Positions 8,201 through 11,200 of a stretch of 41,144 nucleotides of DNA are shown here, piece after piece. Numbering within the stretch: position 1 is the stretch's first letter; each line of letters starts with the position of its first letter. The translations under genes were made by a program, and so were the position numbers. Below the pieces are notes generated by a model. The model had not been told where the DNA came from. It saw only the letters and a program-made list of their open reading frames with translations, and ran no database searches. The stretch comes from a virus (Duplodnaviria > Heunggongvirae > Uroviricota > Caudoviricetes). The stretch lies in IMG/VR virus record IMGVR_UViG_2579778538_000003, one strand, 5' to 3'.

Positions 8201-11200
8201 ATGACCACTGTGAATAAAAAGTTAAAAAAAACTGCATCTGGCGCGATTACATGGTCGGTAATTGTTACCCAGATATTATCTCCAGTTTCTCTTTCTTTGA
8301 TCCCAGCAAACAGTTTTGCATCATCTGGTAATAAAGATGTTACGCAAATTTATGCCAGCGATGAGCATGCAAATAAAGTGGCCTCATTTGCAGCAAGTGC
8401 AGGTCAGAGCCTGGCGAATAATAATGCAAGTAGTTTTGCTGTAAATACTTTATCAACTCAGGCGACAAAAGAGGTCGTCGACTGGTTGCAACAATATGGC
8501 AATGCGCGCATCAAGCTTAATGTCGATGATTCTTTTTCCTTGAAGGATTCATCATTCGACTTTTTATATCCATGGCTGGATACTCAGGATTATGTGTTAT
8601 TCAGTCAGACATCACTACATCGTACTGATGACCGAAATCAGACCAATATTGGTTTGGGGATTCGTCATTTCACTCCTGATAACGCAATGTTGGGTGCGAA
8701 TGTTTTCTATGATTACGATTTAAGTCGTAGTCACTCTCGTGCAGGTTTTGGGGTTGAGTACTGGAGGGATTATTTCAGGCTTGGTGTAAATACCTATTTT
8801 GGTCTATCTGACTGGAAGAACAGTCGTGATATTGATGATTATCTGGAAAGACCTGCAAATGGCTGGGATTTTTCTGCTGAAGGATGGCTACCTGCTTATC
8901 CGCAATTAGGGGCATCTATTCAGTTTGAAAAATATTATGGTAAAAATGTCGGGTTATTTGGAAGCGATAACCTGCAGGAAAACCCTTACGCAGTTACTGG
9001 GGGAATTTCTTATACACCAGTTCCTCTGATTAAGTTTTCTGCACAGCATAAGCAAGGACAGAGCAACACTCACGATACAACCTTTGGTGTTGAGTTTAAT
9101 TATCGCCCGGGCGTTTCCTTGGCTGAACAGCTTAGCAGCGATAATGTTGCAGTTATGCGAGAAGTCCAGAACCGGCGTTATGATTTTGTTGAACGAAATA
9201 ACAACATTGTTCTGGAGTACAAGAAGAAGCATGCACTGAAAATCAGTTTGCCAGAGTCTGTTCAGGGGGAGGGGGAATCAATCATCCCTGTAACACTGAC
9301 AATCAACAATGCTAGTGGTGGTATCAAGTCTGTACAGTGGAATGATAGTGCATTCACTGCGGCTGGCGGCAAGATCAGTGGAAATGGCACATCATGGCAG
9401 ATCACTTTACCGGCTTATAAAAGCGAAGGTGTAAATTCGTGGAATGTTGGAGCCACAGTACAGGATAACAGAGGCAACGTTTCCAACTATGCCGTGATGA
9501 ATATTAGCGTTACTGATAGTGGTGTCTCGACGGCTGATTCGTCTTTTACACTGGATGGAGATTCGTCGCCGACAATCTCTGCTGATAGCCAATCCACTTA
9601 TCCGATAGTATTAAGCCTGAAAGATAGTAACGGTAAGGCATTAACCGGACTGGCTGATGACATTGAAATGTCAGTGGAATTTACAGCAGATAGCAATAGT
9701 GCTCGACAGCGTGAAACGGTAACTGCTCCGTCATTAGGCGCGGTAGAGGAAATCTCTGCTGGGGTATATCGCTCTGTTCTGACTGCTGGTTCGCAGGCTG
9801 GTACGGTACGTGTAACTGCAAAAGTTCAGGGAAAAACCTTTACTCTGAATATTAAGCAGGCAGCCATTACTGATAGTGATGTATCGACAGCTGATTCGTC
9901 TTTTACACTGGATGGAGATTCGTCGCCGACAATCTCTGCTGATAGCCAATCCACTTATCCGATAGTATTAAGCCTGAAAGATAGTAACGGTAAGGCATTA
10001 ACCGGACTGGCTGATGACATTGAAATGTCAGTGGAATTTACAGCAGATAGCAATAGTGCTCGACAGCGTGAAACGGTAACTGCTCCGTCATTAGGCGCGG
10101 TAGAGGAAATCTCTGCTGGTGTATATCGCTCTGTTCTGGCTGCTGGTTCGCAGGCTGGTACGGTACGTGTAACTGCAAAAGTTCAGGGAAAAACCTTTAC
10201 TCTGAATATTAAGCAGGCAGCCATTACTGATAGTGATGTATCGACAGCTGATTCGTCTTTTACACTGGATGGAGATTCGTCGCCGACGATCTCTGCTGAT
10301 AGCCAATCCACTTATCCGATAGTATTAAGCCTGAAAGATAGTAACGGTAAGGCATTAACCGGACTGGCTGATGACATTGAAATGTCAGTGGAATTTACAG
10401 CAGATAGCAATAGTGCTCGACAGCGTGAAACGGTAACTGCTCCGTCATTAGGCGCGGTAGAGGAAATCTCTGCTGGGGTATATCGCTCTGTTCTGGCTGC
10501 TGGTTCGCAGGCTGGTACGGTACGTGTAACTGCAAAAGTTCAGGGAAAAACATTTACTCTCAGTATTAAGCAAACAGCAACAACAGAACCTGATTCTGAG
10601 GTCAGTGCTGTTTTAACCGCTGCACCAGCAGAACAGGTAGTTGGTTACAATATCAATCTACAACTGGCAGTGAAGGATTCACAAGGAAATGCAATCACTG
10701 GTGATAACACTCTGAGCTTTTATGCTCTTAACCAGGCAGAAGGAGTCGAGTTTGGGACTGTAACGGAAAAAGACGGTGTCTATAGCGCGACAGTAACTTC
10801 AAAACGAGCTGGTAAGATTACTATCGGTGTTAAATCTGATAGTCATGATTTCTCAGGTGTTAAGAAAGAAATCACCTTTATTGAGGACCGGCAGCAGGTT
10901 ACATTCTCTCAGTTTGAAGCCAGCCAAAATAATGCATTGGCTGATGGAAAACAGAGAAATATGGTAACTGTAAGCCTTGCGGACCGTTTCGGCAATGTTG
11001 TTCCTGGTTATGCTGTCACATTGTCTTTACCAGCAGGGATAACTCAAGTTGGTGGTGAACATGCTGTTTCAACTGACGAAAATGGTAATGCTATTTTTGC
11101 GTTAATAAGCTCCACTCCGGGGTCTTACGTGATTACAGCTCATGCTGGTTCTCAGATGTCTACTGAGTTAACAGTGACCTTTGCATCAAATATGACCGGA

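Follow-up and report, generated by a model that had tools for sequence, protein, structure and literature searches.

Does a gene that carries three almost identical copies of one domain record an isolated duplication, or an exchange that still adds and removes whole domains from strain to strain? This question is posed by a 41,144-nucleotide (nt) stretch of tailed-phage DNA (Caudoviricetes; IMG/VR record IMGVR_UViG_2579778538_000003; the whole of this stretch is hereafter called the window), in which a 4266-nt open reading frame (ORF) for a predicted inverse autotransporter contains an array of three tandem repeats. Our answer is that misaligned homologous exchange between the repeat units very probably adds or removes one domain at a time, giving rise to alleles with one to four domains and keeping the units alike.

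Base-by-base comparison at an offset of 357 nt identifies three head-to-tail units of 357 base pairs (bp), 119 codons each, at 9510-10580, in frame within the ORF at 8201-12466 on the + strand. The preliminary description had correctly recognized an array of three 357-bp units but placed it one base off, at 9511-10581. Tandem Repeats Finder reports the array at 9510-10572 (period 357, 3.0 copies, 98% matches, 0% indels) as the sole long array in the window. The units, each of which encodes one immunoglobulin (Ig)-like domain, are as follows.

9510..9866, + strand: repeat unit 1 (u1), one Ig-like domain, with an edge-specific head (G13/C17/G23)
9867..10223, + strand: repeat unit 2 (u2), interior, with A at position 9931 (unit position 65), where strain EC958 has G
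10224..10580, + strand: repeat unit 3 (u3), its tail specific to the array edge (six differences at positions 329-356)

Aligned over 357 nt, u1 and u2 differ at 5 sites, u2 and u3 at 8, and u1 and u3 at 11, with no indels in any pair. The DNA identity of whole units is, accordingly, 96.9-98.6%, rising to 99.0-99.7% in a 305-nt core where just 1-3 sites differ, and the differences are concentrated at the edges of the array, namely, in the head of u1 (positions 13, 17 and 23) and in the tail of u3 (six, at positions 329-356). The alignment thus bears out the initial impression of near-identical 119-codon units, which are by no means substantially divergent, and because 357 is 3 x 119, the array keeps the reading frame. 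In a domain alignment, the unit protein sequence shows 18-24% identity to the remaining Ig-like domains of the product, so that the identity among the units is far above chance or ordinary paralogy. From position 427 to at least 32466, where the EC958 locus taken for comparison ends, the window is 99.99% identical to Escherichia coli EC958, a strain of sequence type (ST) 131, and hundreds of complete genomes, EC958 and JJ1886 among them, have a 3-unit gene one nucleotide apart from that of the window; the array in the window, therefore, is not an assembly artefact.

The number of units varies among strains. The gene was detected in 562 records, representing 561 of 5426 complete E. coli genomes, and gene lengths sampled across the match ranking were 4266, 3909 and 3552 nt, that is, three, two and one units. 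The census was run with the two unique flanks alone as queries, at three query lengths; because the search tool joins pieces that are up to half the query length plus 500 nt apart, the three lengths separate the copy classes. Counting by coverage of the whole gene or of unit junctions was rejected since non-collinear pieces were joined and 2-unit genomes covered 100% of a 3-unit query. The resulting classes are as follows.

1 unit: 84 records
2 units: 116 records (200 with two or fewer)
3 units: about 346 records (546 with three or fewer)
Flanks not joined: 16 records

The 16 unjoined records include genes that are truncated or disrupted by insertion sequences (IS), such as the one with ISEc10 (locus L007, where the insertion splits the gene and makes array extraction unusable), as well as strain AVS0193, the one complete-genome record with four units. 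In a larger protein collection, 1540-amino-acid (aa) proteins, the length expected for four units, comprise seven distinct variants from several other assemblies, drafts among them. All length variants examined, from one unit to four, are intact ORFs of 1183, 1302, 1421 and 1540 aa. The preliminary description had proposed that whole Ig-like domains are gained and lost, and had named a uniform copy number across related strains as the observation that would speak against it; what we find are one, two, three and four units, always in frame.

All four copy states were found on flanks 99.7-100% identical to those of the window, and on flanks 100% identical there are eight genomes with two units and four with one. 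Three of the four allele types defined by flank sequence occur in more than one copy state, and the type with 94.9% identical flanks (57 records) has two units in every record sampled. Going by strain lists, the gene appears to be concentrated in extraintestinal clones: the 3-unit allele is in ST131, MCJCHV-1 and the MS108xx strains, probably ST1193, carry a 1-unit allele, and in a strain labelled ST38 there is a 2-unit allele whose flanks are about 94% identical to those of the window.

Two apparent outliers were set aside. FXCREC048 (NZ_CM135821.1), with six unit matches, looked like a 6-unit array, but the locus examined is one IS-disrupted copy of ordinary length; the other three matches must lie at a second locus of the same chromosome, in a second copy of the gene and, perhaps, of the prophage region. 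The 1423-aa protein of E. coli UMEA 3489-1 (P0005) has an out-of-register junction, APSLGA|GNGTSWQITLP, in which part of the preceding D00-like domain is duplicated together with a unit; it is either a draft misassembly or the product of a different duplication event.

The diagnostic sites in the units show how these alleles relate to one another. Single-unit alleles combine a u1-type head with a u3-type tail; in strain 1442, the single unit is a u1/u3 hybrid, for which a crossover must have occurred somewhere from unit position 65 to 273. In four of the eight ST131-type 2-unit genomes, all four of which encode the same protein (WP_032142528.1) and have no informative single-nucleotide polymorphisms in the flanks, the array examined is u1 followed by u3. 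In KE50, the unit joins the head of u1 to the tail of u2 of CU568-3, and this allele, by its markers, is a collapse of a 2-unit allele of the CU568-3 type. At the other end of the range, the units of AVS0193 are in the order u1, u2, u2, u3 (in terms of the EC958 units), with 0 differences between the interior units; a second 4-unit allele, on a different allelic background (L013), has u2 identical to u3; and P0002 represents a third 4-unit pattern. The three patterns indicate at least three separate recent expansions, and the suggestion of recent duplication is upheld by the two alleles in which interior units show 0 differences. Overall, the marker patterns of the units fit single exchange events, as expected of unequal recombination.

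The mechanism we propose follows from the geometry of the array. Because the units are 97-100% identical and their length is a multiple of three, a misaligned exchange would shift the array by exactly one folded domain and leave the frame intact. Such exchange could take the form of unequal crossing-over, gene conversion, or replication slippage through sister-strand misalignment, and the same events would homogenize the units, resulting in concerted evolution. The "RecA-dependent slippage" initially invoked merges two mechanisms: unequal crossing-over is RecA-dependent, whereas slippage at repeats of this size is largely RecA-independent, and so is sister-strand misalignment, which in E. coli works efficiently on tandem repeats a few hundred bp long. 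The enzymes involved might be RecA or the Red system of the prophage itself. The lambda Red genes are on the - strand at 1962-3726 (exo at 1962-2642, bet at 2639-3424, with gam adjoining), ~5 kb from the array, and, speculatively, could stimulate recombination among the units when the prophage is induced.

What would be gained or lost in these exchanges depends on the architecture of the protein, which can be outlined as follows.

8201..12466, + strand: inverse autotransporter gene (type Ve secretion, intimin/invasin family), 1421 aa (ORF, Pfam, EC958 annotation)
8369..9202, + strand: outer-membrane beta-barrel translocation domain, aa 57-334 (Pfam PF11924, E = 5.6e-101)
9224..9508, + strand: first, barrel-proximal Ig-like domain, aa 342-436, D00-like and unique; the left flank of the array (phmmer)
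10581..12463, + strand: about seven further, mutually diverged Ig-like domains of the distal passenger (Pfam, PDB, domain alignment)

Except for the nucleotide at 9931, the gene is EC958_RS06345 (WP_022645049.1), annotated in EC958 merely as "inverse autotransporter beta domain-containing protein." The product starts with a hydrophobic N-terminal leader (MTTVNKKLKK...SFASS), followed by the barrel, aa 57-334, where the IAT_beta model (PF11924) scores 338 bits against a cutoff of 22.3 and two barrel structures of the family are matched in the PDB (invasin 4e1t, E = 1e-73; intimin 4e1s, E = 7e-63). Given the IAT_beta domain and these barrel matches, the product can be assigned to the inverse autotransporters of the intimin/invasin type, with surface export and adhesion as the predicted functions; the label "adhesin" given in the preliminary description was correct at the family level. 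The passenger follows the barrel on the C-terminal side, with the repeat array in its membrane-proximal part, and all passenger matches in Pfam fall after aa 341: Invasin_D3 (205 bits in 8 stretches), Big_1 (186 bits in 5 stretches), as well as Filamin and Big_3_5. The barrel-proximal domain (aa 342-436) has only a weak Big_13 match in Pfam, and phmmer aligns the intimin chain 6tqd_A with aa 342-441 (E = 1.2e-9). Farther along, the invasin structure 1cwv matches aa 910-1155, and the C-terminal 129 aa match Big_1 only weakly. A LysM domain was not detected in the Pfam scan of the product.

A single repeat unit scores 38.8 bits against Invasin_D3 (cutoff 33) over unit residues 8-110, so that one unit corresponds to one Ig-like domain plus a short linker; judged by these profile matches, each unit is an Invasin_D3/Big_1 Ig-like domain. 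An AlphaFold2 model of one unit, built from a 6-row alignment of paralogous domains, is all-beta, with 7 strands, at low confidence (mean predicted local distance difference test score, pLDDT, 64.8), and Foldseek retrieves weak matches (E about 1e-3) that include the Ig domains of FdeC (4e9l), InvE (5n40) and InvD (5ldy); the two results serve here as weak support only. With respect to named relatives, every NCBIfam equivalog model scores far below its curated cutoff: IatC N-terminal, 388/2400; intimin, 329/1400; SinH, 318/999; Ilp, 312/1125; YrIlm, 305/750; Cronobacter Inv, 284/710; YchO (YchO/YchP), 270/508. By these scores, the protein is none of the named E. coli inverse-autotransporter families. 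A literature search by the protein accessions and the locus tag found no paper naming them, and the EC958 genome paper makes no mention of the gene.

If the product is displayed at the cell surface, as its family would predict, the number of units might alter the projection of the distal seven domains, as in the Periscope proteins discussed below. Quite possibly, however, and although we lean toward the other side, the variation is real but of no functional consequence, the gene being silent or dispensable prophage cargo in which repeats come and go neutrally. Several observations weigh in that direction and against a functional array in active exchange. The gene or its immediate 3' flank has been hit by at least five insertion sequences, namely, ISEc23, IS2, ISEc52, an IS3-family element and ISEc10 (loci L007, L012 and L002; matches H67, H74, H85 and H191), and these independent disruptions, together with the truncated copies, suggest frequent inactivation or weak selection. 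The gene, moreover, lies in the early-right region of a normally repressed prophage, and the promoter-like sites upstream of it occur at a frequency at the chance level. No lectin-like or other recognizable tip domain was found in the distal passenger with Pfam or PDB searches. Finally, copy number is stable in near-clonal series: three units are found throughout the near-identical genomes of the Esc3-Esc27, U12A-U15A and 1162 series, which implies that the array is not hypermutable and that any switching is not fast. Opposed to neutrality are the intact ORF in about 546 of the 562 records, with all examined length variants in frame, and the persistence of near-identical neighboring domains across alleles 6% apart, which hints at tolerance or benefit; neither point is decisive. 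Near-identical neighboring domains are generally disfavored in multidomain proteins (review PMC9704523).

The homogenizing side of the proposed exchange can be assessed through a diverged allele. The allele of strain EC16 (locus L006) is 93.6% identical, with the left flank diverging by 3.6% and the right by 8.1%. In the unit core, the EC16 units differ from each other at 11 sites and from every EC958 unit at 19-21 sites, and the EC958 units differ from one another at 1-3 sites. The two alleles nevertheless have the same junction-specific tail and head, distinct from the terminal tail and head: in multi-unit alleles, the junction tail is CTTTACTCTGAATATTAAGCAGGCAGCC, as opposed to ATTTACTCTCAGTATTAAGCAAACAGCA in the terminal unit, and the junction head is GTGATGT, as opposed to GTGGTGT. 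Units that are more alike within than between alleles, combined with a common junction signature, amount to concerted evolution, and the same two features support the early suggestion of ongoing homogenization. The simplest reading of these sequences appears to be one old duplication, followed by continuing homogenization of the interior from which the edges of the array escape.

It is conceivable, of course, that the domain was duplicated independently in each lineage, in place of one old duplication followed by concerted evolution, because recent duplications also would make the units of an allele resemble each other. We regard this as unlikely. A fresh junction would join the ancestral tail to the ancestral head, yet all multi-unit alleles, that of EC16 included, share the diverged junction, and the two EC16 units are already 11 core sites apart. 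The A for G at 9931, the sole difference in the gene between the window and EC958, which makes u2 like u1 at this position, is a candidate for a short gene-conversion tract between units, or else a chance mutation. The exact allele of the window is absent from the complete-genome collection, where the top matches each have one mismatch.

Short-read assembly fails at the array, as anticipated in the preliminary description, and the protein clusters bear the traces: many partial proteins, 447-451 or 533-534 aa long, are cut off where a contig ends shortly after entering the array, and a 118-aa fragment comes from a contig of 356 bp, which is what a collapsed repeat node would give. Could all differences in copy number, then, be assembly artefacts, with a true number of three everywhere? 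The array exceeds the length of short reads, and drafts break or collapse there; the ST131-type 2-unit and 1-unit allele sequences are exactly the paths through a short-read graph in which the loop is taken once or skipped; and 5 of the 12 ST131-type records with one or two units share an accession series, CP1840xx-CP1841xx, which suggests a single submission. These last two points, too, count against biological variation in this group, and some of the copy losses within ST131 could be assembly collapse. As an account of the whole pattern, however, artefact is very improbable. The 1-unit and 2-unit states are consistent by lineage in many independent complete genomes and have allele-specific unit sequences, as exemplified by the type with 94.9% identical flanks and by the 1-unit type of MCJCHV-1, and collapse cannot yield four units, which are found in seven distinct proteins from several assemblies. 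Collapse thus accounts neither for the differences between lineages nor for the 4-unit alleles. The 4-unit gene of AVS0193 (L014, 1501-6123) is an intact ORF of 1540 codons that RefSeq splits into a "partial" pseudogene and an "invasin domain 3-containing protein"; it seems that the extra repeat confuses the annotation pipeline.

A role of the array as an on/off phase-variation switch, for which the presence of repeats alone might speak, has a negligible probability, given that 357 nt is 3 x 119, that the alleles examined, from one to four units, are all open, and that the shift of frame or promoter spacing characteristic of phase-variable contingency loci was not found in these intact length variants.

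The gene resides in a lambdoid prophage of the pandemic ST131 clone, integrated beside icd, between the replication gene P and the ybcN/ninE/rusA/Q block. Across ~7.8-14.0 kb, the GC (guanine plus cytosine) content is 38-47%, compared with 50-55% in the flanking phage genes, a low-GC island typical of moron cargo. Next to the inverse-autotransporter gene and convergent with it is a second gene of the island, with a putative terminator in between.

12478..12498, strand not assigned: GC-rich hairpin with T-runs on both strands, between the convergent genes (consensus scan only)
12503..13546, - strand: alpha/beta hydrolase (BD-FAE / Abhydrolase_3), in the same low-GC island (Pfam; annotation)

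The hairpin looks like a bidirectional terminator-like site. EC16 has the inverse-autotransporter gene without the hydrolase, indicating that the two cargo genes are separable. In a phage-isolate collection, the gene was not found, and there were only two distant protein matches, at 29-31% identity.

Other features of the prophage deserve a brief record. The same element carries iss, for an increased serum survival lipoprotein homologous to bor, at ~17664-17957 on the - strand (EC958 annotation). Direct repeats of 19-23 bp (TTTACCCGAATCAGGTAAA-like) are clustered at 6675-6787, inside the replication-protein gene at 6234-7253, and this cluster resembles the iterons at the replication origin of a lambdoid phage. 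Positions 1-426 of the window are not collinear with EC958 and contain the end of an IS1 transposase gene (ORF 16-411, PF03400, E = 1e-74); therefore, in this strain an IS1 element borders the prophage immediately beyond its excisionase side.

A gene found in about 10% of complete E. coli genomes, with an array that breaks or collapses in short-read assemblies, is of some practical concern because pangenome, core-genome multilocus sequence typing and vaccine-antigen analyses will mis-size or fragment it. Beyond that, the locus adds an uncharacterized prophage-borne inverse autotransporter to the type Ve proteins of E. coli and, in ST131, illustrates concerted evolution and polymorphism in domain number cleanly and on a small scale. 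Provided that the protein is expressed, the number of domains could alter its reach or its accessibility to antibodies. One can go further and picture an uncharacterized eighth E. coli inverse-autotransporter lineage, a moron on the icd-integrated, iss-carrying lambdoid prophage of ST131 and other pandemic extraintestinal clones, that is selected as a "periscope" and accelerated by Red, a composite scenario that we consider rather unlikely. Were it true, the number of domains, from one to four, would be tuned to the surface architecture of the lineage (O-antigen or capsule depth) or to immune pressure, and Red (exo/bet/gam) could speed the gain and loss of repeats in partial induction.

Among the E. 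coli inverse autotransporters, FdeC, YeeJ and IatA-D share with this protein the type of secretion and a Big_1-rich passenger (Goh et al. 2019, PMC6714894). FdeC is also alike in size (1415 vs 1421 aa) and in that a lectin tip was not detected, and the unit model weakly resembles an Ig domain of FdeC (4e9l), but FdeC was not among the PDB chains recovered by sequence search. IatC is set apart by the score of its N-terminal model, 388 against a cutoff of 2400, and for IatC and IatD, Goh et al. found no variation in tandem-repeat number, in contrast to the clear variation here (PMC6714894). In their survey, EC958 and JJ1886 were positive only for fdeC, iatA and iatB (PMC6714894), which places the gene outside the six families surveyed. 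Yersinia invasin and the intimin of enteropathogenic and enterohaemorrhagic E. coli (EPEC/EHEC) have the same barrel family (4e1t, 4e1s) and type of Ig-like passenger (1cwv, 6tqd); they differ from our protein in the C-type-lectin tip and LysM, which were not detected here, in the NCBIfam intimin score of 329 vs 1400, and in that the Ig domains of the classical proteins are diverged rather than identical. Also similar in organization are YrInv and YrIlm of Yersinia ruckeri, inverse autotransporters in which tandem Ig-like domains are near-identical (as cited in PMC6714894). In NCBIfam, the barrel region is matched by the N-terminal model of YrIlm, although at 305 bits vs a cutoff of 750 the protein is not an equivalog, and it has far fewer identical repeats, in another host and genomic context.

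The most apt comparison, however, is with the Periscope class, which includes SasG/Aap, Rib/Alpha C, Sgo_0707 and CdrA (Whelan et al. 2021, PMC8201768; review PMC9704523). These are surface proteins with long tandem domain repeats of high identity that vary in number among related strains, for which intragenic homologous recombination has been proposed as the cause (PMC8201768, PMC9704523), and the review counts inverse autotransporters that have Invasin_D3 repeats among the Gram-negative members (PMC9704523). The likeness extends to the length of the repeats (more than 50 residues; here, 119 aa) and their very high DNA identity (here, 96.9-98.6%), to the correspondence of one repeat to one folded domain (here, an Invasin_D3 match and a 7-strand model at pLDDT 64.8), and to repeat numbers that differ among close strains (here, 1-4, with the ST131-type contractions known from assemblies only). 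The differences lie in the modest range of just 1-4 repeats, set among ~8 non-identical Ig domains, in the prophage-borne location of the gene, and in the putative nature of the rod geometry and projected tip. Surface proteins whose length varies through high-identity repeats already form an established class, and the principle is not new. The array fits this known class, and the inverse autotransporter described here is a new, uncharacterized protein of a well-described kind, in which real variation in copy number follows an already well-known route to variation in the length of surface proteins.

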